Shown: positions 5,673-24,000, numbered from the stretch's first letter. The stretch is DNA of 24,000 nucleotides from Arsukibacterium ikkense (GCF_000987775.1 NZ_LAHO01000014.1:1-24000); one strand, 5' to 3'. Notes: a model not told the origin generated them from the sequence alone. Made by a program: numbers and translations.

Positions 5673-6151
5673 TGTTGCTGATACTCCTGCGTTGAACTGT
5701 GCACACCGGCGCTGTCTGGCCAGGCATAATCCCATTGCTCCAGCATCGCATGAATAAGCGCAAGATGATGCACACTATGGCTGGCCACAAAGTCCAGCTC
5801 ACGTTCCACGCTGGTATAGGTTTGCCCTTCGGCAAACTGATAGGTTAACTGGCTATCCAGATCAGCAGCGTTCAAACTGGCAAGCCACGGCTTCAGTTGG
5901 CCAATCCAAAACAACGCTTTTGCCTGGTCCGTTTCTGCCCCTTCATCGCGCAGACGCAGCCGGTAATCGAGCCGACCGCTGGCAACGGCCAGCCGCAGCT
6001 GCTGATAGTGGTCCAGCACATGGCGCACATGTTTACCGACCGAAGGTTGGCCGGGCCAGTCTTTAATGCAACGATAATGCTCAGGCTGCAGCTGAAGCAA
6101 TACAGTGCTCAGTAATTGAAGTTGCTGCAGGTTGTGTTCAATTACCGTCAT
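5660..6151 (-). CDS. DinB-family (DinB_2-like four-helix bundle, metal-binding His triad) protein
   Basis: The His-containing motifs are HVRHVLDHYQQL and ASHSVHHLALIHAML. Its 3' end overlaps the start of the NRDE fusion gene by 13 nt. Confidence 0.5.
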   Translation of the reverse strand: MTVIEHNLQQLQLLSTVLLQLQPEHYRCIKDWPGQPSVGKHVRHVLDHYQQLRLAVASGRLDYRLRLRDEGAETDQAKALFWIGQLKPWLASLNAADLDSQLTYQFAEGQTYTSVERELDFVASHSVHHLALIHAMLEQWDYAWPDSAGVHSSTQEYQQQCAP

Positions 6152-6386
6152 GCCGCTCTGCCCTATTTTTGGTTAAATCATTCAGTCGCTGTTTTGCAGC
6201 ACTGTAACTGGCGACCGAGAAAGGTACCAGGTAATTAAGCAGCGCCATGCCCCAGCGCCACTCTTGCTGACCGAGCAAGGCATACCACTGATTGATCAGG
6301 TTTAGTAAAGTCCCCACCACCAGCGCCACCTTTAAGGCATTGCTGATAAGCGATGGCTGACGCAGTTGTCGTAACAAGGCTTTCAT
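6138..6386 (-). CDS. small membrane protein, NrtS-like (nitrate/nitrite transporter NrtS family suspected)
   Basis: ALKVALVVGTLLNLINQ ... LNYLVPFSVASYS matches my memory of the roughly 80-aa NrtS family. It has an ATGA overlap with the HD-GYP gene and a 14-nt overlap with the DinB gene. Confidence 0.4.
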   Translation of the reverse strand: MKALLRQLRQPSLISNALKVALVVGTLLNLINQWYALLGQQEWRWGMALLNYLVPFSVASYSAAKQRLNDLTKNRAERHDGN

Positions 6387-7306
6387 CCGCGGGCAAACCT
6401 TATCAACTGCTCCAGCGGAATATGCGTAATAGACTCTTCGATCATGCGCTTAATTAACAGATTATCGGCTTTGGGTTGCCATGCCGCCACAGGGGCTTTT
6501 TTGCCGGTGGGTTTTACCCGCAACTGATGATCTTCTTCACATAACCTCATTTCACTATGACACACACTACAAGCCAACAGGTCGCCTGGTTTGTCATCGC
6601 TTTGCTGCAACACAGTGGGGCCACAATGCGGGCAAGTATGCAAGGGAATACCATTATCGCTGTGTCCCATAATGGCATCCAGCACACCCTCTTCCGCCAG
6701 CGCCAATAAATGATTGCACCAAAACTGGCTGAACTGCCGGCCTGATTCAGCGCGCAGGATGTTCAAGACCTTATCCAGTGGCATCGGCTTGCGGTAAGCC
6801 CGAAGACTGGTCATGGCGTCAAAGGCATCACAAACACCGATAATGGCAGCATCGGTTGGGATCATGCTGGCGGTAAGTCCATAAGGATAACCGCGCCCAT
6901 CCGGCCGCTCATGGTGCAATTCGACAGCTGCAGCCACCAGATGCCCCAGCGGATGCCCTGCCAGCATGCGGCCACCCGCTGCAGGGTGCGTTTGGATCAG
7001 GGTAAACTCGTTGTCATCCAGCTTGCCGGCTTTATTTAGAATAGCATCGGGAATGGCCACTTTACCCAGATCATGCAGAAAACCACCGAGCGTCACCCGG
7101 GCAATATCAGCATCTGGCAAACCACCAGCCCGGGCCACTAAATTGGCATAGCGCGATACTCGCCACAAATGCCCGCCGGTATAAGGATCTTTGGCTTCAA
7201 CAAACCAGGCCATTACCATCAGGCTGGCAAGCAAGTCTTTGCTCAGCTGGCCAGCATCGGCAGGCAAAGCCTGATCTTTGTGGAACTGCTGAAACCACCT
7301 GAACAT
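6383..7306 (-). CDS. HD-GYP domain c-di-GMP phosphodiesterase with C-terminal Cys4 zinc-ribbon
   Basis: The motifs are GGFLHDLGKVAIPD (HD), HHERPDGRGYPYGL (GYP) and the CPHC-x17-CSVC ribbon. A GAGG SD lies upstream of the ATG. Confidence 0.9.
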   Translation of the reverse strand: MFRWFQQFHKDQALPADAGQLSKDLLASLMVMAWFVEAKDPYTGGHLWRVSRYANLVARAGGLPDADIARVTLGGFLHDLGKVAIPDAILNKAGKLDDNEFTLIQTHPAAGGRMLAGHPLGHLVAAAVELHHERPDGRGYPYGLTASMIPTDAAIIGVCDAFDAMTSLRAYRKPMPLDKVLNILRAESGRQFSQFWCNHLLALAEEGVLDAIMGHSDNGIPLHTCPHCGPTVLQQSDDKPGDLLACSVCHSEMRLCEEDHQLRVKPTGKKAPVAAWQPKADNLLIKRMIEESITHIPLEQLIRFARG

Positions 7307-7324
7307 AAAAACCTCTAATTTTAG

Positions 7325-7777
7325 TTAATGTTTTGCATGCAACTTCAATAGCTTAGAAAAAGCATCTCGTTTGATAGCATCTGCCAGATCATCTTTGCAA
7401 AAATACAATGCGGTGGCTGGCTGGCCAGGATGCGCTGCACCTACCATTTGTCCTGCTGCAGCAATGGCTGCCTGCTGATGATGCGCCTGCATTAAGCGCA
7501 GAATACTATTTTGTACCCGTTCAAGTGGCAGTAAACTGGCAAAAACGATTGGCATGGACGGTTTTATATGGCGAATTGCGGCCAATAACTCCTCTGCAGA
7601 TTGCGGCAGGGGGGATGTTATGGCAAGGGAAATGACTGCAGCATCGGCCTTAGCCAATTCATCATTTAGGGCATCCAGATTTAGCAAACGGTTAAATCTA
7701 AAGCCTTGCTCTTGTAGAAAAGGCGCCATTTCACTGACGATAAAAGGGTGCGGTCTGGCTAATAATATATGTGGCAT
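7325..7777 (-). CDS. hypothetical protein (150 aa), possibly a flavodoxin-like / degenerate receiver-like fold
   Basis: ORF track, with an AGGAAA SD. It is the first gene of the operon and ends 18 nt upstream of the HD-GYP gene. It shows an alternating beta-alpha pattern (HILLAR, AAVISLAI, PIVFASL) but lacks the phospho-acceptor Asp. Confidence 0.5.
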   Translation of the reverse strand: MPHILLARPHPFIVSEMAPFLQEQGFRFNRLLNLDALNDELAKADAAVISLAITSPLPQSAEELLAAIRHIKPSMPIVFASLLPLERVQNSILRLMQAHHQQAAIAAAGQMVGAAHPGQPATALYFCKDDLADAIKRDAFSKLLKLHAKH

Positions 7778-7871
7778 GCTTTTTCCTAACGTTGATTTCT
7801 AGTTGCAATGTGCCGCAAACTGCTTAGACTAAATTATTCATTAAGCTTAGGAAGTTCCGCTACTTATCACA

Positions 7872-8792
7872 ATGACCAAAACACCGGCCCTATCCACCGA
7901 AACACCCGAACCGCTGGAACAGCTATTAGCCCAGCTGGCATTTGGCTCAGAACTGCATTTCGAATCTGGTTTTTGTGATCATTGGAACTTGCTGACCAGC
8001 AAATCGAATAAGGCGGCGTTGCATGTAGTAACGGCAGGTACCTTATGGATGGCAATACCCGGTCGTTTGCATGAGCAGCTGCAGTTGCAAGCCGGTGATG
8101 CGATTTTCTTCAGCCACAGTTTCCGGCATTGGCTTAGCGATAAGCCGGTGGATGAACACACCACTGAAGTCGATTTTGCTAATTTTTGTGTACCCGACCA
8201 CTTAGAGCGCGGGCTGGTGTGTTACGACATTGCGGTCGAATCGCCGTTAACGGCTAATTTGTTTCAGGTGATGCCCGACTACATTCATTTGCCGGCCAGC
8301 CAGCAGTCCGGCCGGTTAAGCCCGTTAATTCAGCTGATCCGCGAAGAGGCGCAGGCGCGCCAGCCAGGTTATCAGGCGGCCATTAGCCGCTTAAGCGACG
8401 TGGTAGTGTTGCACTTATTACGTCAGGTGCTGAGTGACGACAGCATGCAACAGGGTTTGTTGGCCGCGCTGAAAGAGCCGGCACTGCGCCGGGTAGTGTT
8501 GGCTATTATGGATGAACCGGGCGCGGACTGGACAGTAGACAACATGGCGGCACTGGCGTTTTTATCAAAAAGCGCCTTTGCCGAGCGCTGCCATAAAATA
8601 ATGGATATGACGGCCAAATCGCTGCTGGACGAACTGCGACTGCAACGCGCCCGTTTCTTACTTATCCACTCCGAACTGAGCCTGGAGCTGATTGCCGAAC
8701 AAGTCGGTTACCAATCCGCCACGGCCTTTATCCGCTTTTTTAAACAACGCGAGCAGTTATCGCCCGGTGAGTTCAGAAGTTTGCACGCCTGA
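7872..8792 (+). CDS. AraC family transcriptional regulator with N-terminal cupin-like domain
   Basis: The C-terminal double helix-turn-helix is LAFLSKSAFAERCHKIMDMTAKSLLDELRLQRARFLL...IAEQVGYQSATAFIRFFKQREQLSPGEFR. The N-terminal cupin-like part includes LHVVTAGTLWM...GDAIFF. It is transcribed divergently from the 7777-3209 operon. Confidence 0.85.
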   Translation: MTKTPALSTETPEPLEQLLAQLAFGSELHFESGFCDHWNLLTSKSNKAALHVVTAGTLWMAIPGRLHEQLQLQAGDAIFFSHSFRHWLSDKPVDEHTTEVDFANFCVPDHLERGLVCYDIAVESPLTANLFQVMPDYIHLPASQQSGRLSPLIQLIREEAQARQPGYQAAISRLSDVVVLHLLRQVLSDDSMQQGLLAALKEPALRRVVLAIMDEPGADWTVDNMAALAFLSKSAFAERCHKIMDMTAKSLLDELRLQRARFLLIHSELSLELIAEQVGYQSATAFIRFFKQREQLSPGEFRSLHA

Positions 8793-8803
8793 ATCCAGAC
8801 GGT

Positions 8804-8826
8804 CCCCGCTCAGCAAAGCGGCGGGG
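8804..8826 (+). terminator. GC-rich hairpin (ccccgc-11 nt-gcgggg) 12 nt after the AraC stop codon
   Basis: The stem was read directly from the sequence. No U-tract follows it. Confidence 0.3.
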
Positions 8827-9018
8827 CCATGAACATTGCCGCCTTGGTGCCAACAAAGGAACAACCTGTCTATCAAGCACACGGGACAAATACGCCTTTG
8901 TCTACTGCAGTGAGCACGGTTTTGTGATAATCGGCTCCAACAGTCCATTGCCTGGCGTTTAGCGGACGGTTAGAGATACCCTGGAGTCCAGCTATGCAGA
9001 CATTCACAGGTTACATTG

Positions 9019-9873
9019 TTATATCCTCCGAAATGGATGCAGTAGTTGAGATAAGTAGCGAGTAGGATAATCGGGCTCTGTCGCAATACCCAGGTCATCA
9101 ACCCCTATCACCCGCTCAAAATCAAAATAGGCGGTACCCAGCACACGATCTGTCAAGGTTGTAAATAATCCAAAATTTACATTACCTTCAGCAGATGTAC
9201 GAAGGTGATGAAAGCGGTGCACTGAATTTATGGCGAGTATATATTTAAAGGGTCCTGCAAAATAGGCAACATTCGAGTGCTGTAGCAACAACTGTATGAT
9301 TACGGCTGTGGTCAGCAAAATTAACACATCCTGAGGGATACCGACAATGAGCAGCGGCGTTATACCTGCGATCGTTTCCAGCAATTGATGTAGCGGGTGT
9401 TTCATAAGACCATTGAATCCGTACATACGCTTCACACTGTGATGAACAGCATGTAGTTTCCAGAGAAGCGTCAGCCGGTGGCTGGCGTAATGAGCCAGAG
9501 TAATGCCGATGTCTGCTACTATCACCGCTAGCAGTAGCTGAACAGCGAGTGGCCACTCCAGCGGCCACCAGTTAACCACGGTCAGAGCACCAGCGATAAA
9601 CGGCAGCAAGCTTAAACCTATCAGATTCATAAGCTCGTTGTTCAGCGCATGCAGTACGTCACGTGCAGTGTCCTGTTGCGGGATGTTAAAGGTCTGATTA
9701 TATGCCACCCATCTTTCGGCAAGAAATGACACTCCGATCAACAATAATAATAATGGGATCAGCCAAATTTTGGGATAGCCGGCTGCGACGATATAGATCG
9801 CAATACCATTACCGCCAATCAACAAGGCTGGTAAGTATAAAACTTTCACTGCTACAGTGGTCAGATGCTTCAT
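9019..9873 (-). CDS. fatty acid hydroxylase / sterol desaturase superfamily di-iron membrane enzyme
   Basis: Three histidine boxes are present: HYASHR, HAVHH and HRFHH. The N-terminus is polytopic. Confidence 0.8.
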   Translation of the reverse strand: MKHLTTVAVKVLYLPALLIGGNGIAIYIVAAGYPKIWLIPLLLLLIGVSFLAERWVAYNQTFNIPQQDTARDVLHALNNELMNLIGLSLLPFIAGALTVVNWWPLEWPLAVQLLLAVIVADIGITLAHYASHRLTLLWKLHAVHHSVKRMYGFNGLMKHPLHQLLETIAGITPLLIVGIPQDVLILLTTAVIIQLLLQHSNVAYFAGPFKYILAINSVHRFHHLRTSAEGNVNFGLFTTLTDRVLGTAYFDFERVIGVDDLGIATEPDYPTRYLSQLLHPFRRI

Positions 9874-9910
9874 AAACTGAAACTCCTCAATGGTTTGAAG
9901 GAGTCAGTTT
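9874..9910 (-). promoter_or_regulatory. stem-loop in the mRNA leader that pairs with the SD sequence of the hydroxylase gene
   Basis: The minus strand reads AAACTGACTCCT-TCAAACCATTG-AGGAG(TT)TCAGTTT-ATG. This gives 12 paired bases with a 2-nt bulge. The 3' arm contains the AGGAG SD and ends at the start codon. Confidence 0.4.
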
Positions 9911-9949
9911 GCCTTTGAAAGGTTGCTCAGAATTGAACATAAGTGCTAT

Positions 9950-10702
9950 CTATGCAGAAAGAAGTTGTTTAATGGTAGCTGGACTGACACCAAATCCCTG
10001 CTTAACCGCACGGCAGAAATGTGCCTGATCTGAAAAGCCCGCTGCTAAGGCTGCATCAGTCAGTGACATTGTTCTTGATAATTCAAAACCGACAATTAGC
10101 TTCAGCCATTTTTTGTAGCTGCGTAGGGGTAAGCCTGTTTGTTTCGAGAACCAGTGCGAAAATCGGCTGGGAGAGAGATGCACCTGTTTTGCTAATGTAG
10201 CACGCGATGTATCCATGCCACAGGCAATGTCGTGTTTTAGGGTGTCCAAAATGTACTGCAGTCTGTTATGCATCTGTGACTGGTCAAGGTTGCCGTATAT
10301 CTGGCAAAACCGCTGAACCGAAACGTGTAAGTCGCCAATTCCGTTAAAAATTGTCATGCAACCCTCGACAAGTTGGTCACTCAAAGGGGAAAGCCTATCC
10401 TTTGGGGAGGCAAAATCTTGCAGCAACCCCGGACAACCAATGTGGAGTGGATCGATGTATATACATAGAACGTCAGCAGGATCTAACTGATGTGCCACCC
10501 CCGCAGGGATCAGAACGCCTTTATGATGAGCAGAGTAATCGCCTGAGCGTACACAGATGTCGTTATAAAAGCCAATGACGAGTTGATGTGCCCAATGCTT
10601 ATGGGGCGTGTTATCACCTGAAAGACCAACGAACACACCTATGCCAGCAGTTATCGCAGCAGAACCATGCCAACGTCTATTCAGTTGCGGTGTCTTATAC
10701 AC
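9950..10702 (-). CDS. AraC family transcriptional regulator
   Basis: The C-terminal helix-turn-helix region is LAKQVHLSPSRFSHWFSKQTGLPLRSYKKWLKL...AALAAGFSDQAHFCRAVKQGFGVSP. It lies upstream of, and on the same strand as, the hydroxylase gene. Confidence 0.8.
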   Translation of the reverse strand: MYKTPQLNRRWHGSAAITAGIGVFVGLSGDNTPHKHWAHQLVIGFYNDICVRSGDYSAHHKGVLIPAGVAHQLDPADVLCIYIDPLHIGCPGLLQDFASPKDRLSPLSDQLVEGCMTIFNGIGDLHVSVQRFCQIYGNLDQSQMHNRLQYILDTLKHDIACGMDTSRATLAKQVHLSPSRFSHWFSKQTGLPLRSYKKWLKLIVGFELSRTMSLTDAALAAGFSDQAHFCRAVKQGFGVSPATIKQLLSA

Positions 10703-10816
10703 TGTTATAACTCCCTGGCTCCCATGATTTGCGTTTCCTTTTATATTTAGAGTGACTTACTAGTAAATATAGTTAACGCGAGGCTGGCTCTTGCTTACGG
10801 CGGTGTAGCTCAAAAA

Positions 10817-11089
10817 CTAAGGACGTTTAGTGGATTCTTTACGCCCCTCTTCCAATCCCCGGCGATAAGCTTCCTCTTCACCAGGATGCTTGTCTGCGTC
10901 GTGACTGTGCCCGCCATGCCCCTTATGCATAAAGATGTGCATCAGTGGGCACAACAGAATAATCAAAAAGGGCAGATACGGCAGGACGTGTTCAGCGTGC
11001 TCCACAAAAATGAAATAGAGCGCGGCGCCGATAAGTGTAAGCGTGGCCAGTCCGTGCAGGCTGGTCCAGTATCCGGATTTATTTACCAT
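10817..11089 (-). CDS. DUF2933-like small membrane protein with His-rich tail
   Basis: Two TM helices are followed by MHIFMHKGHGGHSHDADKH. It starts 36 nt downstream of the P-type ATPase gene, which is a position I associate with this family. Confidence 0.6.
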   Translation of the reverse strand: MVNKSGYWTSLHGLATLTLIGAALYFIFVEHAEHVLPYLPFLIILLCPLMHIFMHKGHGGHSHDADKHPGEEEAYRRGLEEGRKESTKRP

Positions 11090-11125
11090 GATGACTTCTC
11101 CTTCTTCAACTCTGCGAATCGATGT

Positions 11126-13417
11126 TTAATTGCTGGGGGGCTTGCTTGCATTCAGCTTTACCCGCTTAAGTAACAGTGAATTACCAATCACTGACAGTGA
11201 GCTTGCGGTCATCGCCACCACACCGATCATCGGGTGCAGCAAACCGATAGCGGCGATGGGTATGGCGGCCATGTTGTAGGCGCTGGCCCAGATCAGGTTT
11301 TGCACAATTTTGCTGAAGGTGGCGCGAGAGAGGTACATGGCTTCCACCACACCGGTCAGTTCGCCGCGAACCAGCGTCACATCGGCCGCCTCAATGGCGA
11401 CATCGGCACCAGCGCCGATAGCAATGCCGACATTAGCCTGTTTCAGCGCTGGCGCATCATTGATGCCATCGCCCACCATGGCCACATGGTTACCGTGCTT
11501 TTTCTGCAGTGCACGGATTGCATCCACCTTGCCTTCCGGCAGCACACCGGCCTGCACTTCGTCGATGCCCACTTCCTCGGCAACGGCGCGCGCCGCGCGT
11601 TCGTTGTCGCCGGTAATCATCACCACATGCAGGCCCAACTCGTGCATGCCGCGAATGGCTGCGACCGATCCTGCCTTGATGGTATCGGCCACTGCGACAA
11701 TGCCACATGCTTTGCCATCTACAGCGACCAATACGGCGGTGCGACCACGTCCCTCCAGATCATCCAGCTCCTTGTCCAGGGCCTCCAGCGCTGTTACCCC
11801 TTCTTCGCTCAGTAACTTGCGGTTGCCAATCAGTACCAACGCTCCATCGACCTTGCCGGACACACCACGCGCGCCGGTAGAGCGAAATTCAGTTACCTCA
11901 CCAGGTGTCACATTGCGCTCGCCGGCACCCTCAACAATGGCGCGGGCAATCGGGTGCTCGGAGGCATTTTCCACCGTGGCGGCCCATTGCAATAATTGTT
12001 GTTCGGTCACGCCGTCAGCCGTGACCACTTCGGTCAGTTTTGGCTCGCCGCGGGTAATGGTGCCGGTTTTATCGAGCACCATTACCTTGATGTCTTTAAA
12101 GGTTTGAATGGCCTCGCCGGAGCGGATCAATATGCCTCGCTCGGCACCGATACCCGATCCCACCATCAGTGCGGTTGGCGTCGCCAGGCCCAGGGCACAG
12201 GGGCAGGCGATAACCAGCACCGCGATAGCGGCGAGAATGGCCAGCACCGGGGTGCTTGCTGTGGGGTTGACCCAGGGTAGGGTTCCTGCGGCCCATTCCA
12301 ATATTGGACGCAGACTGTCGGCGGCGACAAACCATACCACAAAGCTCGCCAGAGCAATCAGGATGACGATAGGCACAAAACGTCCGGTCATGCGATCGGC
12401 GAACTCCTGAATGGGTACCCGTGATCCTTGCGCCTGTTCAACCAGCTTGATCACCTGCGACAAAAAGGTATCGCCACCCACCTTAGTGGCCCTCACCCGC
12501 AATCGCCCCTCTTTATTGATGGTTGCGCCAATGACGGTATCGCCCGACGATTTATACACCGGCACCGATTCGCCGGTGGCAATGGATTCATCCAGATGGC
12601 TTTCACCTTCGACCACCTCGCCGTCTGTGGGCACCTTGTCACCAGGGCGGATCACCATAATGTCGCCTGGCTGCAGTTCCTTGACGGCAACGTCCTGCTC
12701 CTGACCATCGCGTTCGACCCGGGCGGTTTTAGCACCCAGCGTCAGCAACTTGCGGATGGCCTGGGAAGCTCGGCCCTTGGCCTTGGTCTCAAGATAGCGC
12801 CCCAATAGATGGAAGGTCATGATGGTGGCGGCCATTTCCATAAACGACGTCATGCTGACAAAAAAGCCTGCCAGTCCAATCAAATAGGGTGGAATACTGC
12901 CCATGGAGATCAGCACATCCATATTGAAGGTGCGGTTGGTCAGCGAGCGCCAGGTGGACTTGTGAGTGGCTGCGCCGCCGTAAAGAAAAACCACGGGAAA
13001 CGCCAGCAGTGTTACGATCAACAGATAGCCGGGAATGGGCTGCCAGAACATGTGGGGGATCATCAATAACATGATCAGGGTGGTGGGTATGCCGGCTATC
13101 CAGAGGCGCTGCAGGGCCTGGCTCAGGTAGGCGCTTTCAATATCAGCATCCTTTTCGGCAGCGTTATCGTCTGAGTCGGAACAGATCTGAGCGACATCGT
13201 AACCGGCTTTTTCTACGGCAGCGCGGATCTCAGCCAGGTTTAACTTGCCGGGATCATAGCTAGCCTCAACACGGTGAGCTGCGATATTGGTTGTGATCTC
13301 ACCCATGCCATCCAAGCGCTTTAGCGAGGTTTTTACAATACCCGCGCAGTGGTCTGATCCCATTCCTGGCAAAGTCAGTCTTGCCAGGGCTGTGATATGT
13401 TTTGTTTCAGCGCTCAT
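11126..13417 (-). CDS. copA: copper(I)-translocating P1B-type ATPase
   Basis: Motifs present are an HMA-like N-terminal domain, TGES, CPCALGLATP, DKTGTIT, GDGINDAP, AYNMAAIP and MTASSLSV (MxxSS). The start is set at the ATG at 13417, which is preceded by a GGGAGA SD. The ORF-track extension to 13729 overlaps the upstream gene in another frame. Confidence 0.95.
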   Translation of the reverse strand: MSAETKHITALARLTLPGMGSDHCAGIVKTSLKRLDGMGEITTNIAAHRVEASYDPGKLNLAEIRAAVEKAGYDVAQICSDSDDNAAEKDADIESAYLSQALQRLWIAGIPTTLIMLLMIPHMFWQPIPGYLLIVTLLAFPVVFLYGGAATHKSTWRSLTNRTFNMDVLISMGSIPPYLIGLAGFFVSMTSFMEMAATIMTFHLLGRYLETKAKGRASQAIRKLLTLGAKTARVERDGQEQDVAVKELQPGDIMVIRPGDKVPTDGEVVEGESHLDESIATGESVPVYKSSGDTVIGATINKEGRLRVRATKVGGDTFLSQVIKLVEQAQGSRVPIQEFADRMTGRFVPIVILIALASFVVWFVAADSLRPILEWAAGTLPWVNPTASTPVLAILAAIAVLVIACPCALGLATPTALMVGSGIGAERGILIRSGEAIQTFKDIKVMVLDKTGTITRGEPKLTEVVTADGVTEQQLLQWAATVENASEHPIARAIVEGAGERNVTPGEVTEFRSTGARGVSGKVDGALVLIGNRKLLSEEGVTALEALDKELDDLEGRGRTAVLVAVDGKACGIVAVADTIKAGSVAAIRGMHELGLHVVMITGDNERAARAVAEEVGIDEVQAGVLPEGKVDAIRALQKKHGNHVAMVGDGINDAPALKQANVGIAIGAGADVAIEAADVTLVRGELTGVVEAMYLSRATFSKIVQNLIWASAYNMAAIPIAAIGLLHPMIGVVAMTASSLSVIGNSLLLKRVKLNASKPPSN

Positions 13418-13437
13418 TTTTTCTCCCAGATGTCTAA

Positions 13438-13989
13438 TCAGCCAGGCTGTCGACGGCCGTGAATCGCGATTGCCAGCAAAGCAAGCACCGCCGCACCAAT
13501 AATGACCAGCATTGTCGTCGGTAAATAAAAGGTGGTATACACTTCCCAGCCCAGCAAACGCAGCACGTCTGAAACCATCGTAGGGTTGCCGATCAGATGG
13601 CCGCCCAGTGCGCCGGTGATGGCAAGTAAGTCGGCGCCCAGGATACCTAAACCAAGTATGATCCAGCGCGATACCCCGTGCCATAGCGTCTCGCCGTGCC
13701 GCCATGCAATAAACAGCAACATCGTCCAATAGCCCAGCGACCAGCTTGCCATCAGCAAGTGATTACGACCCAGTGGTGAGGCTGATAGCGCTTCGTACGG
13801 CCATACCAGAAAACCCAGCGCAAAGGTGATAGCGCCTGTCACAGCACCCAGTGCCAGTAGCGGCACCAAAACTCGGCCTAAATTGCGCGCCAACTGGCGA
13901 TCTGAAAAAACACGGATAACAATAACCAGCGTTGCCGTCAGCCACAGCGCCACCGGAAAGTGCGACATTACAGCATGATAAGGCCCCAT
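13438..13989 (-). CDS. DUF2231-like polytopic membrane protein
   Basis: The N-terminal motif is HAVMSHFPVALWLTA, and there are 4-5 TM helices. Its start overlaps the upstream stop codon (TAATG). Confidence 0.6.
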   Translation of the reverse strand: MGPYHAVMSHFPVALWLTATLVIVIRVFSDRQLARNLGRVLVPLLALGAVTGAITFALGFLVWPYEALSASPLGRNHLLMASWSLGYWTMLLFIAWRHGETLWHGVSRWIILGLGILGADLLAITGALGGHLIGNPTMVSDVLRLLGWEVYTTFYLPTTMLVIIGAAVLALLAIAIHGRRQPG

Positions 13990-15416
13990 TACCGCTCCCC
14001 TTGTTTGGATAACAGATTATTGAGAGCGAGTGCAAATGCAGCGATTAGCAGCAAGCCGGCGAACAGGGTCAGCAACCACTGCAATTTAATTTCTGCCAGA
14101 AACTCGGCTTCGACGCCGTAATAAGCCAGTTGTTTTGCACTGTGGCGAACCCGTACCGGTACGCCCGCCCGCATATGCGCTGCACCAGCATGTTGCTTGC
14201 TTAATAAAGTAGTCCAGTTCACCTGGCCCGGATAAAACAATTCCAGGGTATGGCTGTCGACCTGCGTCCAGTCGGGTTGGCTGCCACTGAATTTGTGGGC
14301 GCGGATTTCAGCATCGCGGCCAAGCCCCATTTCCAGTGGTATGGACACATAATGCCAGCGGCTGCCCATTGCATTGCGGTGCACGGCGATGGCGATGTCA
14401 TACAGTCCTTGTTCTTTAAAAACTTTGTCCTGCAATGGATCCCCGGTGTCTTTAGCGCGAACCAGCGTCACGCGCCAATAGCCGTCCTGCCAGCGGGCCT
14501 GGCCATCTACCCGGATGTCGCCACGGGATCCTGAGGGCAAGCGCAGCACCCGGCGGGGCAGGGTGTCACCTTCCTGCCAAGCAAGGCTATTGTCAAATGG
14601 CAGCGCCATCGATTCACTTAAATAGTAGATCGCATCGAAGTCTGGGCGTCCGGTAGTCACCTCAGTCCAGTTCAGGGCGTGAAAGCCGGTTTTTGCCGGG
14701 TTGAACATCAGGCTGGGATGGTTGGCGCCACTGTCCCAGTTGGTATAGAAGGGGCCGATGCCACTATCACTGTGCCGGAACTCGGCCACAAACTCATCGT
14801 CTGACACATTAAGCGGGTTGGAACGATGGGCCCGCCAATGCCACAGATCAAGAAAATAGCCAACCTGACGTTGCTGAGTCAGAGCTGCATCGTCTACCAC
14901 TGTGCGCCAGTCATTGATATCAGTACGGGTGGCCGGCAGGCTCTTGCGTACGTCAGTGGCGCCAAGTTGTTGCCCCAGGTAAGCATGCTCCCTCACCTCA
15001 GTGGCGCTGGCCTCCCGGCTCATAAAACGGTGGTTTTCGCCAACCGTAATGTAGCCACCATAGCGCTTAAATTCCGGTACGCCACCATCGTCTACCAGCA
15101 TGCTGACGCGATCTTCATAGACGCCATCAGGCTGCTCACCAACGGGGCTGCTGCCATGCCGGATCCATTCGCCGCCGGTATAGCGCAGCATGTCCAGGTA
15201 GACGTGCGGCCGCTCGGTTGGCCATTGGTAGCGGAAGTAGATGTCATGCTCGTTGTAAGCCACCTGCAGTTGCAGTGGCATGATGAGCGTTTTGGGAATA
15301 AAAATATTGCGCGCGGTATCGTTATGAATAACCCCCCGGCCATGCATCAACCAAGAGGCTGTCAATACGCTGATAAAAATAGCAATAGCAATGTACAGCA
15401 GGTGAGCCCGGGACAT
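13989..15416 (-). CDS. membrane-anchored periplasmic protein with ethylbenzene-dehydrogenase-gamma-like (EB_dh/DOMON-type) haem-binding domain
   Basis: There is an N-terminal TM helix (LLYIAIAIFISVLTASWLM) and a C-terminal TM helix (WLLTLFAGLLLIAAFALAL). The exported core carries VAYNEHDIYFRYQWPTE and DLWHWRAHRSNPLNVSDDEF, both recalled as EB_dh family signatures. Confidence 0.5.
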   Translation of the reverse strand: MSRAHLLYIAIAIFISVLTASWLMHGRGVIHNDTARNIFIPKTLIMPLQLQVAYNEHDIYFRYQWPTERPHVYLDMLRYTGGEWIRHGSSPVGEQPDGVYEDRVSMLVDDGGVPEFKRYGGYITVGENHRFMSREASATEVREHAYLGQQLGATDVRKSLPATRTDINDWRTVVDDAALTQQRQVGYFLDLWHWRAHRSNPLNVSDDEFVAEFRHSDSGIGPFYTNWDSGANHPSLMFNPAKTGFHALNWTEVTTGRPDFDAIYYLSESMALPFDNSLAWQEGDTLPRRVLRLPSGSRGDIRVDGQARWQDGYWRVTLVRAKDTGDPLQDKVFKEQGLYDIAIAVHRNAMGSRWHYVSIPLEMGLGRDAEIRAHKFSGSQPDWTQVDSHTLELFYPGQVNWTTLLSKQHAGAAHMRAGVPVRVRHSAKQLAYYGVEAEFLAEIKLQWLLTLFAGLLLIAAFALALNNLLSKQGER

Positions 15417-15652
15417 GAAATTTGATTTCCTTATTTATAAGGTCTGCACTTTGGATTTTCCTCAGTTGAGTTTTTAGTGCCTGATCGTCAGGCCCCTGTG
15501 GTGAGGAATGGGTATCTATCGAAAACAGAATAAGGGAGCTAAGCTAGCATACTCTGTTTAGTCTCCCGGAAGTGAACTACGTATAGGTATAGGACAAATA
15601 CTCCAATATGTATAGATAGTGGCTTGATGCCACCCTGCTAGTGCTTTGCCGC

Positions 15653-16516
15653 TTAAGACAGAGTTAAGCCAATCACCACCGTGGCCCAGGCCGTTAGCCC
15701 CAGCACCAACGCAGCAGCTATCATCTCAATACAAATAACGGTTCTGAGCCGCTTGATCACACCGGGCATGGCCACCCTTGGTACCAGCAACAACTTATTG
15801 GTCGCGCCAAGCCCCAGTAGTAATAACACCAGGCATAACTTAGCTAACAACGTCAGGCCATAAGCCGTTTGCCACAGCAGGCTTACATCGCCCAGCAACA
15901 CTTGCAGCATTAGCACACCCATCAGCAGCAACAGGCTGACAAAAATCAAGGCTGCTTTGCCAAAATCCGTCATTACCCGGGCGACTAGCTCAGGGTTGTC
16001 TATATGGCTGATCCGCCACAGCGGCAGCAAGGAGCCGATCCAGCAAGATACCCCAAGCAGGTGCAACATTAATGCCAGCTGGCCATACCAGGGCGTGCGG
16101 ATCAAGTGACCGGTAAAAATATAAGACAACAGAATACAGGCAGCCACTATTAGCATAAGCACAGGCAAACACTTACCGCGCCAGTAAAATGTAGCGGCAA
16201 GCCAGCAACTGACAAAACCTGCTACTGCCAGGCCCCAGCTTAACCCCATATTGCCGTCCAGCAACATAAGGTACATTTCCCAGTCATAAAAACTGGCAAG
16301 GCCCTGGCCACTGAACAGCAGCAACTGCACCCCAAATGCCAGTACCACACTTACAACGCCGAGCAGGGCTGAGCCGATACAATAAGCACCTAACCAGGGC
16401 AGTATTGATTCATCCCGGGCGCTGAGCCAGCGGATAAAATAGCCGCCTATCACGCCTGTGGTGGCAAGGTATAGCAGCACTTTTGCCAGCCAGGTCAGTA
16501 GCAAGTACAGGTCCAT
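15653..16516 (-). CDS. copD: CopD-family copper resistance membrane protein
   Basis: It is a polytopic protein of about 8 TM helices and 287 aa. It starts 47 nt downstream of the CopC-domain gene, as in the classical copCD arrangement. Confidence 0.65.
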   Translation of the reverse strand: MDLYLLLTWLAKVLLYLATTGVIGGYFIRWLSARDESILPWLGAYCIGSALLGVVSVVLAFGVQLLLFSGQGLASFYDWEMYLMLLDGNMGLSWGLAVAGFVSCWLAATFYWRGKCLPVLMLIVAACILLSYIFTGHLIRTPWYGQLALMLHLLGVSCWIGSLLPLWRISHIDNPELVARVMTDFGKAALIFVSLLLLMGVLMLQVLLGDVSLLWQTAYGLTLLAKLCLVLLLLGLGATNKLLLVPRVAMPGVIKRLRTVICIEMIAAALVLGLTAWATVVIGLTLS

Positions 16517-16563
16517 GCGTTATTCCTTTGTTGCAGGGAGAGCAAGCCTCCCCCTTGAGTATA

Positions 16564-17367
16564 TTATTTTGACCAATGAATATGGGTGATCTGCCAATTA
16601 CCGCCGCGCAGTTGCAGGGTCATGGTTTCCATGCCGGTGTGATCTATTGATTTGTCCTTGAACTGGCCGCTAACCTTCGAGCGAGCCAGCGACACTGCGC
16701 TATCGCCTTGTACCCGCACGTGGTGCTCTATGGTTGCCACAGACAGGTCTTTTAGAAACGCCATATCGGCGGCCATATGATGGCTTTCATATTCCGCTCT
16801 GGAGCGTTCAACACTACCGCCTTCAAAAATGATCACATCCTCGGCCAGCAGGCGCTTGACTGCTGAGGCGTCTGCGGCTTTAAGGGCGGCATGAAACTCC
16901 GTCACCGCCTTGGCCGCAGGGTGTTCCAGACCGCTAAAGTGCAGCGCTGTCTTTGCAGAGTGCGCTTTGGCGTCAGTGGCTGCTGCATTGGGGTCAACGA
17001 CAAAACTAAAGGCCCCTTCCATTCGGTGGCCATCTTCTCCCATCCCCATCCATGCTGCCTGATACGCGCCCGCCGGCAGCGGCACAGCAATCAACACCTC
17101 AAACCGGCTTTGCGCGGCACTGCTACGTTTAAAGTTCAGGGCAATGTCCTTGCCGGACGCATCGGTTAGTGTCAGGCTCATCAAGCGCAGTGGCCCGCTA
17201 AACTGCAGGCTTAACTGGCTGGCAGCCACTACCGTCTGCTTATCTGCCGGAACAGAAGAGCTTAAGCTGGTATGGGCCAGAACAGTAAGCGGGCTCAATA
17301 CTAGCAGCAGCAAAGCTAACCGCTTTGCCGCTGCGTGAAGCCGTAGGGTATTTTTCATCAGTTGCAT
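16564..17367 (-). CDS. copC: CopC-domain periplasmic copper-binding protein fused to a C-terminal NTF2-like (SnoaL/DUF4440-type) domain
   Basis: The signal peptide ends at ...VLA|HTSL, giving a mature N-terminal His. HTSLSSSVPAD and GEDGHRMEG (DGHxxxG) are the CopC Cu(II)-site motifs. Residues from about 150 to 267 (AVTEFHAALKAADASAVKRLLAEDVIIFEGG...GNWQITHIHWS) look like an NTF2-like fold. Confidence 0.7.
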   Translation of the reverse strand: MQLMKNTLRLHAAAKRLALLLLVLSPLTVLAHTSLSSSVPADKQTVVAASQLSLQFSGPLRLMSLTLTDASGKDIALNFKRSSAAQSRFEVLIAVPLPAGAYQAAWMGMGEDGHRMEGAFSFVVDPNAAATDAKAHSAKTALHFSGLEHPAAKAVTEFHAALKAADASAVKRLLAEDVIIFEGGSVERSRAEYESHHMAADMAFLKDLSVATIEHHVRVQGDSAVSLARSKVSGQFKDKSIDHTGMETMTLQLRGGNWQITHIHWSK

Positions 17368-17391
17368 TCCTTAGTGTCAGTTGTGTGCACG

Positions 17392-17739
17392 TTAAAGGTG
17401 CGGTATTTTTTCAATGGCGGTAACGACCAGTGCGCTGCCGACTTTCTCAACTTTAACGCGCACACTATCGCCCGGCGCTAAACCGTCAAATAAGGCTTTG
17501 TCCTGTATCTGAAATACCATAGTCATTGCTGGCATACCGAGACTGGCTATGGGTTCATGCTTCAGGGTGATTTTGCCGTACTCTACATCGAGTTTGCGCA
17601 CTACTGCTGCGGTCATATCATCAGTAACGGCTGCGGTATCACTTTGAGGGTGATGTTGGGCATGATCCTGCTGTGCCAGCGCAGACGGCAGCGCTAAAGC
17701 TACCGATAACGCTAATAAACTCATTGCTATTGATTTCAT
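17392..17739 (-). CDS. cusF: CusF-like periplasmic Cu(I)/Ag(I)-binding protein
   Basis: A signal peptide and a His-rich N-terminus (DHAQHHPQ) are present. The CusF core is GKITLKHEPIASLGMPAMTMVFQ. Confidence 0.8.
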   Translation of the reverse strand: MKSIAMSLLALSVALALPSALAQQDHAQHHPQSDTAAVTDDMTAAVVRKLDVEYGKITLKHEPIASLGMPAMTMVFQIQDKALFDGLAPGDSVRVKVEKVGSALVVTAIEKIPHL

Positions 17740-17753
17740 AAATTCACCTGTTA

Positions 17754-19169
17754 CTAGTTATGCCCACTATGGGCTTTGGGTTTACGTACTGTGACTTCCA
17801 CTTCTGCTGCCACCGGCTGTTCTGTCGCCATTAGTTGGCCGCCGTGTTGTGCTGAGCGTTTTGCCGCCGGCATGTCGCCGGTCCATTCGCTGGCCACTGT
17901 GCCTGCGGGATGCTTAAACCAACCCGGATCGGTATAGTCATTCGGCGCTTGATCTGCTCTGACTTTAAGCACACTAAACATGCCGCCCATTTCTACCGAG
18001 CCAAAAGGTCCTTCGCCGGTCATCATCGGCAGGGTGTTATCTGGTAGTGGCATGGGCATTTCCGCCATATCGGCCATGCCGCGCTCGCCCATCACCATAT
18101 AGTCAGGTACTAAGGTTTGAATTTTTTTCGTCATACCACTGTGATCCACCCCGATCATGGTTGGAATATCATGGCCCATCGCATTCATTGTGTGATGTGA
18201 TTTATGGCAGTGAAACGCCCAGTCACCTTCCTCATCTGCGATAAACTCAAGCTGACGCATCTGGCCCACCGCAATATCAGTAGTCACTTCAGGCCAGCGA
18301 CTGCCCGGAGGCGTTGGGCCACCATCTGTGCCGGTAACGGTAAATTCATGGCCATGCAGGTGAATGGGATGGTTGGTCATGGTTAGGTTGCCGACGCGTA
18401 TGCGTACCTTGTCATTTTTACGCACCACCAGCGGATCAATTCCGGGAAAAGCGCGGCTGTTAAAGGTCCAGAGGTTAAAATCCAGCATGGTCATAATTTT
18501 CGGTGTATAAGCACCAGGTTCAATGTCGTAAGCATTCAACAGAAACACAAAATCACGGTCTACTTGCTCAATATAAGGGTGTGCATCTTTTGGATGAGTT
18601 ACCCAAAAACCCATCATGCCCATGGCCATTTGCACCATTTCATCCGCATGCGGATGGTACATAAAGGTACCCGGGCGCCTGGCAACAAACTCATAAACAT
18701 AGGTTTTACCCACCGGAATAGCAGGTTGATTCAGCCCCGCCACGCCATCCATGCCATTAGGTAAACGCTGGCCGTGCCAGTGAATGGAAGTATGCTCAGG
18801 CAGCTTATTGGTGACAAAAATCCTCACTCTATCACCTTCGACCACTTCAATAGTTGGCCCCGGTGACTGGCCGTTATAGCCCCATAGGTGCGCTTTCATC
18901 CCCGGCGCAATTTCTCTGATCACCGGTTCTGCTACCAGGTGAAACTCCTTTACACCCTGGTTCATCCGCCAGGGCAGCGTCCAGCCATTTAACGTCACTA
19001 CCGGATTATAGGGCCGGCCAGATGTCGGCAGTAAAGGGGCCATAGTGTCAGCAGAGGTTTGACTCACCACTTCCGGCAGCCCCGCCATGGCTACACGGCT
19101 GACCGCCGTTACCCCAACCCCGGCGGTAATGGCGCCGATCCCTTTTAGTAAATCACGACGTGAAAACAT
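17754..19169 (-). CDS. Tat-exported multicopper oxidase (CopA/PcoA/CueO-like cuprous oxidase)
   Basis: The twin-arginine leader is MFSRRDLLKGIG. Copper-ligand motifs are HWHG, HPHAD, HPIHLHGHEF and HCHKSHH. A Met-rich segment (MADMAEMPMPLPDNTLPMMTG) is also present. Confidence 0.9.
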   Translation of the reverse strand: MFSRRDLLKGIGAITAGVGVTAVSRVAMAGLPEVVSQTSADTMAPLLPTSGRPYNPVVTLNGWTLPWRMNQGVKEFHLVAEPVIREIAPGMKAHLWGYNGQSPGPTIEVVEGDRVRIFVTNKLPEHTSIHWHGQRLPNGMDGVAGLNQPAIPVGKTYVYEFVARRPGTFMYHPHADEMVQMAMGMMGFWVTHPKDAHPYIEQVDRDFVFLLNAYDIEPGAYTPKIMTMLDFNLWTFNSRAFPGIDPLVVRKNDKVRIRVGNLTMTNHPIHLHGHEFTVTGTDGGPTPPGSRWPEVTTDIAVGQMRQLEFIADEEGDWAFHCHKSHHTMNAMGHDIPTMIGVDHSGMTKKIQTLVPDYMVMGERGMADMAEMPMPLPDNTLPMMTGEGPFGSVEMGGMFSVLKVRADQAPNDYTDPGWFKHPAGTVASEWTGDMPAAKRSAQHGGQLMATEQPVAAEVEVTVRKPKAHSGHN

Positions 19170-19179
19170 AACATGCTCC

Positions 19180-20604
19180 TTAATGGCCGGCTGCCGTATT
19201 GGTGTTAATTAATGGCGTTTCGCTGGTATTGGCTGCCGTTACAGGCACGCCCATCATGGCGAAATCCAGCTGCGACCTGGCCAGCCAGAAATCACGGTTG
19301 GCATTAACATAACCGGTTACGGCATTAATTTGGTTACGAGCGTCGGCAATAAGCTCAAACACGCTGATAAACATACCGTTGTAACGCAGCTGATTCTCTT
19401 CTGCAATTTGCTGCTGTATTGGCAGCATGGCATTTTTGTAGTGCTGTGCTAATTCATACCTGGACTGGTAGTTAAAGTAACTTTGCCTTAACTCAGAGCG
19501 TGCCGACACCCCTATGGCAAAAGCGTGATTAAAAGCTTGTTGATATTGATATTCAGCTTTTTTAAGCCGATAGCTGCCCCAGTCAAATAGCGGCAACTCC
19601 AACACGGCTTTGTAGCTGCGTTCTGAGCGGTCTTGCATATTGGCGCCCACTTCTACTTCAAAAGCATTGATAAAACGAGTGGCCCGCGTTAAGCCTGCGC
19701 CTTGGGCAATGTGCTCCAGCTTTAGTTTTGCCAGCTTTACGTCCAGCCGCTGCTCAAGCCCACCTTGCACGACGTAGCTCCAGTCTGTCAGTTGTGTTGG
19801 GATCTCCGGTAAGCGATCCGGCAATATTAACTGCTCGGAATCCTGCCATAACCCCAACTGGCGTTGTAGCGCTTGTTGGCTGCTGTAGGCTGACTGCCTG
19901 GCTTTGACTAAATTAAGCGTAACCTCGGTGAGCAGGCTCTGCTCGCGCAAGAATTCTAATTTGCTGAAGTTACCGGCCTGCAACATCCGTTTCGCCAGCT
20001 CGGCACCGGCGGCGGTGGTGGCGTAAACCTGCTCGGTGTAATGCAATAACTCCTGCGCCGCCACGGCATTCCAGTATGCATGATGCGTGTCAGCAATGAT
20101 GCCGGCAATCCGCTGCGCGACCTGCAGTTTCACTTGCTCAAACTGATTGATTTCCAGCTGACGGACTTTAGGCAAGGTCAGTAATGACAGCAGATTAAAG
20201 CCAAATTCCAGCTCAGTAGTATAATGGCCATCAGATACCTTGCGAGTCAGGCTGATAGACGGGTTAGGCAGTTGTGATGCTTGCTGCAACTGGGCAGCCG
20301 ATATACCCAGTGTCAGCAGCTCGCCTTGGACTGCCCTGTTATTCAGTACCGCTATTGCCACAGCGTTATCCAGCGTTAAAGGTGTCTTTAATAGCTGTTG
20401 AATACGCTGATCAGCCTGTTGCTGTTGCTGCTCAGTGTCAATTTGCTGTAATGGCGTCGGGTTAATCGCGGCAATTTCAGCCTGTACCTCACTCAGTGGC
20501 TGGCCCGGATTGACTGCGCATCCAGCCAGGGTACTGACTATCGCCAGCAGTGCCGTCAGTTTTAATGTCTGACGTTTGCTGCCTGTTGCTTTAGAACATG
20601 CCAT
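19180..20604 (-). CDS. TolC-family outer-membrane efflux lipoprotein
   Basis: The lipobox is LAGC (Cys29). The 474-aa length and the repeated coiled-coil/beta-barrel pattern are typical of outer-membrane factor (OMF) proteins. The gene ends 10 nt upstream of the multicopper oxidase gene. Confidence 0.8.
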   Translation of the reverse strand: MACSKATGSKRQTLKLTALLAIVSTLAGCAVNPGQPLSEVQAEIAAINPTPLQQIDTEQQQQQADQRIQQLLKTPLTLDNAVAIAVLNNRAVQGELLTLGISAAQLQQASQLPNPSISLTRKVSDGHYTTELEFGFNLLSLLTLPKVRQLEINQFEQVKLQVAQRIAGIIADTHHAYWNAVAAQELLHYTEQVYATTAAGAELAKRMLQAGNFSKLEFLREQSLLTEVTLNLVKARQSAYSSQQALQRQLGLWQDSEQLILPDRLPEIPTQLTDWSYVVQGGLEQRLDVKLAKLKLEHIAQGAGLTRATRFINAFEVEVGANMQDRSERSYKAVLELPLFDWGSYRLKKAEYQYQQAFNHAFAIGVSARSELRQSYFNYQSRYELAQHYKNAMLPIQQQIAEENQLRYNGMFISVFELIADARNQINAVTGYVNANRDFWLARSQLDFAMMGVPVTAANTSETPLINTNTAAGH

Positions 20605-20945
20605 TACTGATGCCCCTTATGGTTATGCGGCTGCTGTTCCGGCTTGGGTTTTGGCTGCTCCGGCTGCTCAGCGTGCTCTGATTGCTCCGCTGCGCCCTCT
20701 GCGGCATAAAACATCCAGCCACCGATCTGACTGACCCGCTGATTAACCTCAAGCCAGTTGCTAACAGCGGGTATCCTGGCCGCTGGTGTGGTTACCGGCT
20801 TGTAAGGTGGCGCGGTCAGCACTGTGTCACGCTGCAATGAGGCGGGCAGGGGTAATTCTTTTGCTGACAAAGCCGTGGCAAAAGTAAGGCTGAGCAGCCA
20901 AAGCCCGGCAACAGCCCGCTGTTTTATGGTGCTACTGCAGTGCAT
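20604..20945 (-). CDS. hypothetical secreted protein (113 aa) with Pro/Glu/Gln-rich, His-containing tail
   Basis: The signal peptide is AVAGLWLLSLTFATALSA. The C-terminus is EQPEQPKPKPEQQPHNHKGHQ. Its stop codon overlaps the TolC-family start codon (TAATG). Confidence 0.55.
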   Translation of the reverse strand: MHCSSTIKQRAVAGLWLLSLTFATALSAKELPLPASLQRDTVLTAPPYKPVTTPAARIPAVSNWLEVNQRVSQIGGWMFYAAEGAAEQSEHAEQPEQPKPKPEQQPHNHKGHQ

Positions 20946-21047
20946 AAAAAATCCTCAATATAATAAATAGCAAAATGCTTTAGCGCATAACACCAGTGAT
21001 AATGCACGGGCGCTAGTTAACGCAATGATCGTTAGAACCTATTGGGA

Positions 21048-22155: not shown

Positions 22156-22157
22156 TT

Positions 22158-23719: not shown

Positions 23720-24000
23720 AGCACAGGCCTGTTGCCAGCCTTGGCGTTTTGCGCTTGCTGCTGCAGCGTTCTGATAGTGGCCAGCTCGTGTTGCAGGCTG
23801 CTTAGCGATGGTATATTGAAATCCCGCTCATACAGGGTAGGCTTTACTCCATGCTGCTGGTAAGCCTGTTGCAGTAACTGCCACACCGGGCTTGGAATAT
23901 CGGCGCCATGGGTGTCGATTAATAAGTCTGGTGCTTGCTGGTAGTGGCCGGCCACATGGTAATAAGCGATGCGCTCGGTTGGCAGTGCCTGCAAAAAAGC
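23716..24000 (-). CDS. DUF692 / MNIO-family (MbnB/HvfB/BufB-like) iron enzyme, C-terminal part only (gene continues beyond the window)
   Basis: YYHVAGHY...LIDTHGADIPSPVWQLLQQAYQQHGVKPTLYERDFNIPSL matches the conserved C-terminal HxAGH...DTHG...ExD block of DUF692 proteins. Confidence 0.85.
   Translation of the reverse strand, partial: AFLQALPTERIAYYHVAGHYQQAPDLLIDTHGADIPSPVWQLLQQAYQQHGVKPTLYERDFNIPSLSSLQHELATIRTLQQQAQNAKAGNRPVL

Follow-up and report, generated by a model that had tools for sequence, protein, structure and literature searches.

A stretch of 24,000 nucleotides (nt) from Arsukibacterium ikkense (GCF_000987775.1, NZ_LAHO01000014.1:1-24000), called the window below in its whole length, contains a copper island of 11 genes on the minus strand, extending from about 21.4 to 10.8 kb. 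Two adjacent genes in this island, encoding a protein of the EB_dh family and a DUF2231 protein, were analysed together with the copper ATPase gene that follows them. The island ends in four closely packed genes, all on the minus strand: the EB_dh gene (13989-15416; 475 amino acids, aa), the DUF2231 gene (13438-13989; 183 aa), a gene for a Cu(I)-type P1B-ATPase (11126-13417; 763 aa from the ATG at 13417) and a DUF2933 gene (10817-11089; 90 aa), whose product is a His-rich small membrane protein (Pfam E 1.2e-21). The first two are translationally coupled by a TAATG stop/start overlap (13987-13991), one base being common to the EB_dh stop and the DUF2231 start (cggTAATGggg). A 20-nt spacer with a GGGAGA ribosome-binding site (13418-13437) precedes the ATPase gene, and a 36-nt spacer (11090-11125), which contains GAAGGAGAAG and a GAAGGAG ribosome-binding site, precedes the DUF2933 gene. 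No terminator-like sites were found at the junctions among the four genes.

Upstream of the EB_dh gene is an AT-rich intergenic region of 236 nt (15417-15652), which separates it from copD and in which a search for a consensus promoter or terminator found neither. The remaining genes of the island (15653-21449, same strand) encode CopD, CopC-DUF4440, a CusF-like protein, a twin-arginine translocation (TAT) multicopper oxidase, an outer-membrane efflux protein, orf113 and orf133. The preliminary description of this DNA had reported four packed minus-strand genes with the TAATG overlap, the 20-nt gap with GGGAGA and the 36-nt gap, and all of these were confirmed on the sequence. It had also described the block as richer in guanine and cytosine (GC) than its flanks. 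The contrast is real, the GC content of the four genes being 0.52-0.57 and that of the two genes just downstream 0.46-0.47, but it is small and unremarkable against a window mean of 0.52 and unrelated genes of up to 0.58. Horizontal transfer argued from GC was rejected because the contrast is too small.

The CPC, YN and MxxSS motifs were read directly in the ATPase translation, which has one HMA domain, and its match to the copper-translocating model TIGR01511 scored 557.9 bits (cut-off 397). As the preliminary description had claimed from the same three motifs, the 763-aa protein is predicted to be a P1B-1 Cu(I)-exporting ATPase of the CopA type. Its N-terminal HMA domain carries an atypical motif, GMGSDHC (residues 18-24; 13346-13366, minus strand), which is kept across the ATPase clade, defined here as relatives 61-91% identical to the ATPase of the window. 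This motif replaces the canonical GMTCxxC, with the first Cys changed to Ser and a His before the remaining Cys, and was also seen at loci L056, L073, L077, L082 and L166, where it is duplicated in L166.

The 475-aa protein matched EB_dh (PF09459) with an E value of 1.5e-43 and 150 bits (cut-off 33.3) over residues 33-358, corresponding to positions 14-236 of the 236 in the profile. PF09459 is carried by all 120 listed homologues, and the mean column identity in alignment A1, which contains the EB_dh protein and its homologues, is 73%. Full-length homologues at 55-66% identity number in the hundreds and come from Alpha-, Beta- and Gammaproteobacteria. Alignment A1 and the AlphaFold2 secondary structure place one transmembrane helix at each end, at residues 3-25 (15342-15410, minus strand) and 440-469 (14010-14099, minus strand), giving an N-in/C-in topology with a periplasmic core of about 415 aa. 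The family and the two terminal helices are therefore as first described. The protein is 100% identical to A. ikkense protein P0001 (452 aa), the public NCBI model of this gene, which starts at M24 and so drops the N-terminal helix that the homologues conserve (window 15342-15416).

Similarity to solved structures is distant. The best Foldseek matches in the Protein Data Bank (PDB) were NxrC (7b04_C, E 3.7e-4) and EBDH gamma (2ivf_C), with TM-scores of only 0.21-0.42 for a model whose mean predicted local distance difference test (pLDDT) score is 59.8. By sequence, the EB_dh profile matched only 2ivf_C among solved structures, and that marginally (E 0.004). A search of the PDB with a CX3CH-containing relative gave no match, and full-length EbdC homologues sought with 2ivf_C fragments for ligand mapping yielded no candidates.

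A profile search over 1.84 billion cluster representatives gave 998 related clusters, 141 of them below 1e-30. Haem motifs were examined in the best 150 representatives by regular expression and in alignment A3. In roughly 55 of these 150 a GC[WF]xxCH (CX3CH) motif is present exactly where the window protein has GGYITVG, usually accompanied by a CXXCH elsewhere. This position lies in a region termed site 1 (residues 119-133, YGGYITVGENHRFMS; 15018-15062, minus strand), at which many relatives have the CX3CH haem-c attachment motif, within the insertion of the sandwich, whereas their CXXCH belongs to a small additional module. Intermediate relatives retain the His without the cysteines (GGFMTSH), and two others, P0276 and P0312, are fused to cytochrome c domains. 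The EB_dh protein belongs to a large uncharacterised clade, many members of which are predicted c-type cytochromes.

In the subfamily to which the window protein belongs, all cysteines and the first histidine have been lost. The 475-aa protein contains no cysteine, has neither a CXXCH nor a CXnCH haem-attachment motif and, therefore, cannot carry c-type haem. The proximal-ligand position, which is the His of CX3CH in the relatives, is Gly. At residue 129 the window has His, 112 of the 121 close homologues have Met, and six, including the copper-island Pseudomonas clade, have Ala, Leu or Ile; the EB_dh protein of L056 has a His at 126. Other candidate ligands have been kept. M106, K158, H193, M237, H346, H355, H409 and H425 are invariant in the 121 close homologues, and K158, M237, R353 and H355 are nearly invariant across the broad EB_dh family. 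H355 (RWHYVS; 14352-14354, minus strand) lies, by profile alignment, near the distal Lys ligand of EBDH gamma, whose haem ligands are Met and Lys.

H409 and H425 belong to a C-terminal extra module (residues 382-431, FYPGQ...H409AGA...RVRH425; 14124-14273, minus strand) that is homologous to the CXXCH cytochrome-c module of relatives. BLASTP aligned the CSACH module of the relative in L166 with the window protein at E 1e-7, placing the His of CSACH on H425 and GHAAG on QH409AG. The CXXCH module is C-terminal in some relatives and N-terminal in others of roughly 440 aa, a circular permutation. The window's subfamily has thus kept two histidines of the extra module, H409 and H425, and the sandwich residues H355, M237 and K158. 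The family forms an instructive evolutionary series, from c-type (CX3CH/CXXCH) to His-only and then to Cys- and His-free forms. As judged from these aligned motifs, the EB_dh protein shows haem-type ancestry, and present-day haem binding is likely. The redox or haem nature claimed in the preliminary description is thus plausible in view of relatives with CX3CH/CXXCH motifs or fused cytochrome c domains, but the canonical Cys/Cys/His is missing from this subfamily. In L166 (6042-8982, minus strand, and 9788-12481) the c-type relative, which has CX3CH and an N-terminal CXXCH module, was found directly upstream of nqrA and nqrB and divergent from a GMGSDHC-type ATPase with two metal-binding domains.

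The match of the 183-aa protein to DUF2231 (PF09990) was only just over the cut-off (27.8 against 26.4 bits), but the model is matched by 41 of the 42 homologues aligned (3.6e-10 for the best), in line with the assignment first made. Its AlphaFold2 model has five helices (pLDDT 82.5), and loop charges in alignment A2 suggest an N-out/C-in topology. Two histidines, H10 (HFP) and H131 (GGHL), are invariant, H5 and N76/H77 are nearly so, and all are on the periplasmic face near Trp/Tyr-rich loops. Four histidines on four helices, with a haem site near each face, as in a cytochrome b561-type di-haem conduit, are not found in this protein, nor was there a Pfam match to b561 or Ferric_reduct. As H10 and H131 are the only invariant histidines and both are periplasmic, a b561-like transmembrane di-haem wire was ruled out. 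On the modelled topology the histidines are arranged as expected for one cofactor or metal site in the outer leaflet, near the partner's membrane-proximal module with H409 and H425.

When one genome per species was scanned, 319 loci of the EB_dh protein were found (at least 319 species-level genomes); neighbourhood counts used 83 loci for pairing and 81 genomic loci for metal genes. A DUF2231 gene directly follows the EB_dh gene in 82 of the 83 loci, and the exception ends at a contig end. The junction between the two is a 1- or 4-nt overlap or a 2-4 nt gap in the other loci, and the gene after DUF2231 is mostly on the opposite strand or more than 100 nt away. Immediate neighbours, counted by Pfam family, were PurK (12 loci), UbiA (10), a Na/H exchanger (6), PhoX and FA_hydroxylase (4 each), a NOX-like ferric reductase (3), and cytochrome c, cytochrome b5 and AhpC (2 each). 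These counts show that EB_dh and DUF2231 form a self-contained, translationally coupled two-protein envelope module, in which pairing is essentially universal and surroundings vary.

A conserved third gene of the module was sought by clustering neighbours and rejected, only lineage-specific genes being found (PurK with a TRAP-type transporter in Halomonas, and UbiA at 10-11 loci). The UbiA-family prenyltransferase gene is immediately upstream of the pair and divergent from it at 10-11 Halomonas, Marinobacter and Pseudomonas loci (L015, L020, L022, L023, L030, L032, L044, L073, L075 and L083). A gene for a secreted, Met-rich protein of about 144 aa (MGMMGDMDMAKMHEMMQKMHG), which matches no Pfam family, recurs 1-3 genes upstream of the pair in L065, L067, L070, L075, L077 and L080 (Betaproteobacteria and Pseudomonas). 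Of the closest metagenomic EB_dh relatives (62-66% identity), L086-L088 have no ATPase directly downstream; in L084 the genes that follow the pair encode a small protein rich in His and Cys and an outer-membrane efflux protein, and L085 stops inside the DUF2231 gene.

Within 10 kb of the pair, P1B-ATPase genes were found at 11 of the 81 loci, 13 genes in 1.196 Mb of flanking sequence. If a genome of 3.5-4 Mb is assumed to have 2-5 such genes, 0.6-1.7 would be expected, corresponding to a Poisson P below 1e-7 with shared ancestry ignored. In a recount with better gene calls, taking four genes on each side of the pair, metal-efflux genes were the only neighbours that recurred across lineages: P1B-ATPase at 11 loci, CusB at 6, CusA at 5 and the Met-rich 144-aa protein at 6, with at least one at about 15 of 81. 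The pair is located in some metal-efflux island in about 15-19% of genomes, and in a neighbour-joining tree of EB_dh the loci with a copper context are spread over at least 5 separate clades, with Alpha-, Beta- and Gammaproteobacteria represented. This enrichment of metal genes in independent lineages is the pattern that copper-island cargo would give.

The sister of the window protein is encoded in Alcanivorax limicola (L056), where the order is cusB-cusA-EB_dh-DUF2231-copA-x-DUF2933, the CopA being 72% identical and the EB_dh start overlapping the cusA stop by 4 nt. Genes for CopG/DUF411, a multicopper oxidase, an outer-membrane efflux protein and a second ATPase adjoin. The same ATPase clade occurs near the pair in four Pseudomonas loci, where the two are not co-transcribed and where, at three of these loci, they are separated by a divergent UbiA gene.

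Surveyed outward from the ATPase, the result was different. Among 80 metagenomic loci with ATPases 68-91% identical to that of the window, of which 54 extend at least 2.2 kb upstream, none had the EB_dh-DUF2231 pair. The closest ATPase (L090, 90% identity; 4454-12602) is in the order cusB-cusA-copA-DUF2933, with 52 nt from cusA to copA, and DUF2933 is the usual companion of this clade, lying downstream of the ATPase in many of its loci. Because L090 has this arrangement without the pair, the pair looks inserted upstream of copA in the window and in Alcanivorax limicola. Plasmid carriage was considered for both the pair and the ATPase clade and rejected for want of evidence: a tblastn search of PLSDB gave no match to the EB_dh or the DUF2231 protein, and no plasmid member of the ATPase clade exceeded 60% identity.

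The preliminary description had read the pair as a dedicated redox partner of the copper pump. The shared operon and the recurrence of metal-gene neighbours stand, but gene-neighbourhood co-occurrence with P1B-ATPases is largely lacking, at 11 of 81 loci from the pair and 0 of 80 from the ATPase clade. As about 80% of loci have no metal gene and none of the 80 ATPase loci has the pair, "dedicated partner of the pump" is too strong; the module is autonomous and facultatively linked to copper, and its membership of the pump should not be assumed.

The reading we prefer, tentatively and with a little less than even confidence, is that the pair is an autonomous haem-type envelope redox module, facultatively recruited into copper islands, where it would be a facultative accessory under copper stress and not an obligate pump subunit. 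As the pair usually stands alone and is only sometimes found in copper islands, it probably serves as an optional redox helper rather than as a fixed component of the pump. The EB_dh protein would be a cysteine-free, b-haem-type descendant of the cytochrome family, transferring electrons at the outer face of the inner membrane. DUF2231 would be its membrane partner, either passing electrons between the quinone pool and the periplasmic domain via a histidine-bound cofactor at the periplasmic leaflet or holding or delivering haem. In A. ikkense the pair would be transcribed, and probably translated, together with copA, and it would, therefore, be made under copper stress. Its most likely roles would be Cu(I)/Cu(II) interconversion in the periplasm without O2, or envelope redox protection, independently of the O2-requiring multicopper oxidase. 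There is a precedent in a plant DOMON haem protein (DOMON-b561), which reduces Cu(II) and Fe(III) (PMC10784544).

A more specific version is unlikely. It would make the pair an unrecognised bacterial envelope oxidoreductase, the Cys-free descendant of a di-haem c-type cytochrome, with DUF2231 as an obligate five-helix partner supplying haem and/or quinol-derived electrons at the periplasmic leaflet, so that cytochrome c maturation is dispensable; within copper islands it would interconvert Cu(I) and Cu(II) without O2, as a complement to the O2-dependent multicopper oxidase. Should the pair prove to be a periplasmic oxidoreductase based on haem and open to recruitment by copper islands, it would be a third kind of copper redox accessory besides multicopper oxidases and CopG, and one that could work without oxygen. 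It would also provide the first function for DUF2231 and for an EB_dh clade present in at least 319 species-level genomes.

Several observations count against a haem-type module with a link to copper. No metal gene lies within 10 kb at about 80% of the 81 genomic loci, the ATPase clade is without the pair at all 80 loci surveyed, L090 included, and the enrichment statistic disregards shared ancestry and rests on an assumed background. With the canonical Cys/Cys/His of site 1 absent from the subfamily, haem could have been lost, and the nearest candidate ligand, residue 129, varies, being Ala, Leu or Ile in some members. For the EB_dh protein AlphaFold2 gave a weak model (pLDDT 59.8), both large insertions being poorly modelled. 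For the DUF2231 protein there was no significant PDB match by sequence profile or fold, and only two histidines are invariant. In the library searched, neither the function of DUF2231 nor this EB_dh clade was the subject of any paper.

A second explanation is that the pair has a general respiratory or stress redox role unrelated to copper and that its place upstream of copA is an accident of island assembly. It is mostly a stand-alone bicistron with mixed neighbours (UbiA, Na/H exchanger, PurK, AhpC, cytochrome c, cytochrome b5 and NOX-like reductase), close relatives adjoin toxin-antitoxin genes, an insertion-sequence element or a sigma-54 two-component system, and the c-type relative is upstream of nqrA. 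A passenger of this kind is possible but on the whole unlikely, as it fits poorly with the enrichment of metal genes, recurrent in at least five clades across three proteobacterial classes, with the operonic insertion between cusA and copA, 4-nt overlap included, in L056, and with the efflux gene and His/Cys-rich small protein that follow the pair in L084, the closest relative.

The conserved residues could alternatively serve non-haem metal handling. The invariant His and Met (M106, H144, H193, M237, H346, H355, H409 and H425, with H5, H10, H77 and H131 of DUF2231) would then bind copper, sequestering or moving it in the manner of CopC/CopD. Both site-1 cysteines and the proximal His have been lost while many His and Met are invariant, the DUF2231 histidines are on the periplasmic side, and the pair is found beside CopC/CopD, CusF and Met-rich proteins. 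Against these points, most loci are outside a copper context, a copper-binding motif was not recognised, neither Pfam nor NCBIfam gave a metal-binding match, and K158, M237 and H355 are equally kept in the c-type cytochrome relatives, which argues for a role in a haem pocket. Such non-haem metal handling seems improbable.

A further alternative concerns DUF2231, which might not be an electron carrier but a protein analogous to CcmC/CcsA, presenting haem b at the periplasmic leaflet to the Cys-free EB_dh protein. The constant presence of DUF2231 with the Cys-less subfamily would then be accounted for. The two invariant periplasm-facing histidines and the Trp/Tyr-rich periplasmic loops are consistent with such a function, as are the sole c-type neighbourhood seen, L166, which has no DUF2231 neighbour, a weak Foldseek resemblance to CcmC (8ce1_C, probability 0.57) and an old source annotation, "heme ABC transporter permease". 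No basis is known for that annotation, the Foldseek match falls short of significance, solved haem-handling proteins show no similarity in sequence, and L166 is a single c-type neighbourhood; haem delivery as the task of DUF2231 is thus doubtful.

Least probable by our estimate is a dedicated, co-evolved periplasmic redox partner needed by the Cu(I) P1B-ATPase, which the 20-nt gap and common operon in the window, the matching gene order in Alcanivorax limicola, where the ATPase is 72% identical, and the four Pseudomonas loci with an ATPase of this clade would favour, but which synteny largely refutes, whether followed from the pair or from the ATPase: any ATPase is lacking at about 80% of the loci with the pair, the pair is missing at all 80 ATPase-clade loci, 54 of them with at least 2.2 kb upstream, copA directly follows cusA in L090, and the Pseudomonas pairs are not co-transcribed with the ATPase.

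Several other features of the island and its surroundings were observed. CopC (267 aa; 16564-17367) has a fused C-terminal DUF4440/SnoaL-like domain, an architecture unusual for CopC. The copper array is led by orf133 and orf113 (21048-21449 and 20604-20945), for neither of which was a family match found; orf133 is secreted-looking and His/Cys-rich (CEACDHCCSIHC), and the end of orf113 overlaps the start of the outer-membrane efflux gene by 4 nt. Divergent from the array are a thioredoxin-like gene and a DsbD_TM gene (21724-22859, plus strand), which could be a thiol-redox accessory of the island. At 9019-10702 there is an FA_hydroxylase gene, often accompanied by an AraC regulator, which recurs beside the pair or the ATPase clade in L070, L075, L077, L085 and L149 (Pseudomonas and metagenomic). 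The right edge of the window (22943-24000) has a partial open reading frame with a DUF692-like C-terminus (YYHVAGH...DTHG...ERD) adjoining a DUF2063/NGO1945_C gene, and the left edge (1087-3093) has genes for DoxX, an extracytoplasmic function (ECF) sigma factor and DUF3379. Together, the two sets of edge genes may resemble parts of bufferin/gig-type metal-stress peptide loci.

The pair was compared with the closest known systems. Eukaryotic CYBDOM proteins, such as Arabidopsis HYP1, likewise combine an extracytoplasmic beta-sandwich of the DOMON superfamily with a membrane part of roughly five helices, and HYP1 has been shown to reduce Fe(III) and Cu(II) (PMC10784544). HYP1 is, however, a single polypeptide whose membrane domain holds two haems via four His and receives electrons from cytosolic ascorbate, whereas the window encodes two proteins, the membrane partner has two invariant His, both periplasmic, and the Met/His pair of DOMON is not identifiable. 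The gamma subunits of the type II DMSO-reductase family (EBDH gamma, 2ivf_C, and NxrC, 7b04_C) belong to the same Pfam family (EB_dh) and gave the best structural matches; they serve as haem-b domains for electron transfer in the periplasm and are soluble subunits of molybdoenzyme complexes. In contrast, there are no genes for molybdenum or iron-sulfur subunits at the window locus, and the window protein has two insertions of about 80 residues, the extra C-terminal module and two transmembrane helices, its match to 2ivf_C being marginal.

Cytochrome b558/566 of Sulfolobus offers a similar arrangement. CbsA, an EB_dh-type protein outside the cytoplasm, carries one haem b and has hydrophobic segments at both ends, and its gene lies beside that of its membrane partner, the polytopic CbsB. 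It differs in being archaeal, glycosylated and encoded in the cbsAB-soxLN respiratory cluster. The closest functional analogy for quinol-linked electron transfer is MsrQ-MsrP (YedZ-YedY), a two-gene operon in which a membrane haem-b protein passes quinol-derived electrons to a periplasmic partner; MsrQ, however, is of the Ferric_reduct family and MsrP is a molybdoenzyme, and neither has any sequence or fold relation to the pair. Multicopper oxidases (CueO/PcoA) and CopG (DUF411) are, like the role proposed here, copper-island functions that alter the oxidation state of periplasmic copper, and both types adjoin the pair: multicopper oxidases in the window and in L056, and DUF411 in L056. They differ in being copper or Cu-cluster proteins, not haem-type, and in having no DUF2231-like partner. 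Beside these systems, the architecture of the EB_dh-DUF2231 pair is a variation on known themes, in which DOMON/EB_dh haem domains are combined with membrane partners (CYBDOM, CbsAB and MsrPQ), and not a new category.

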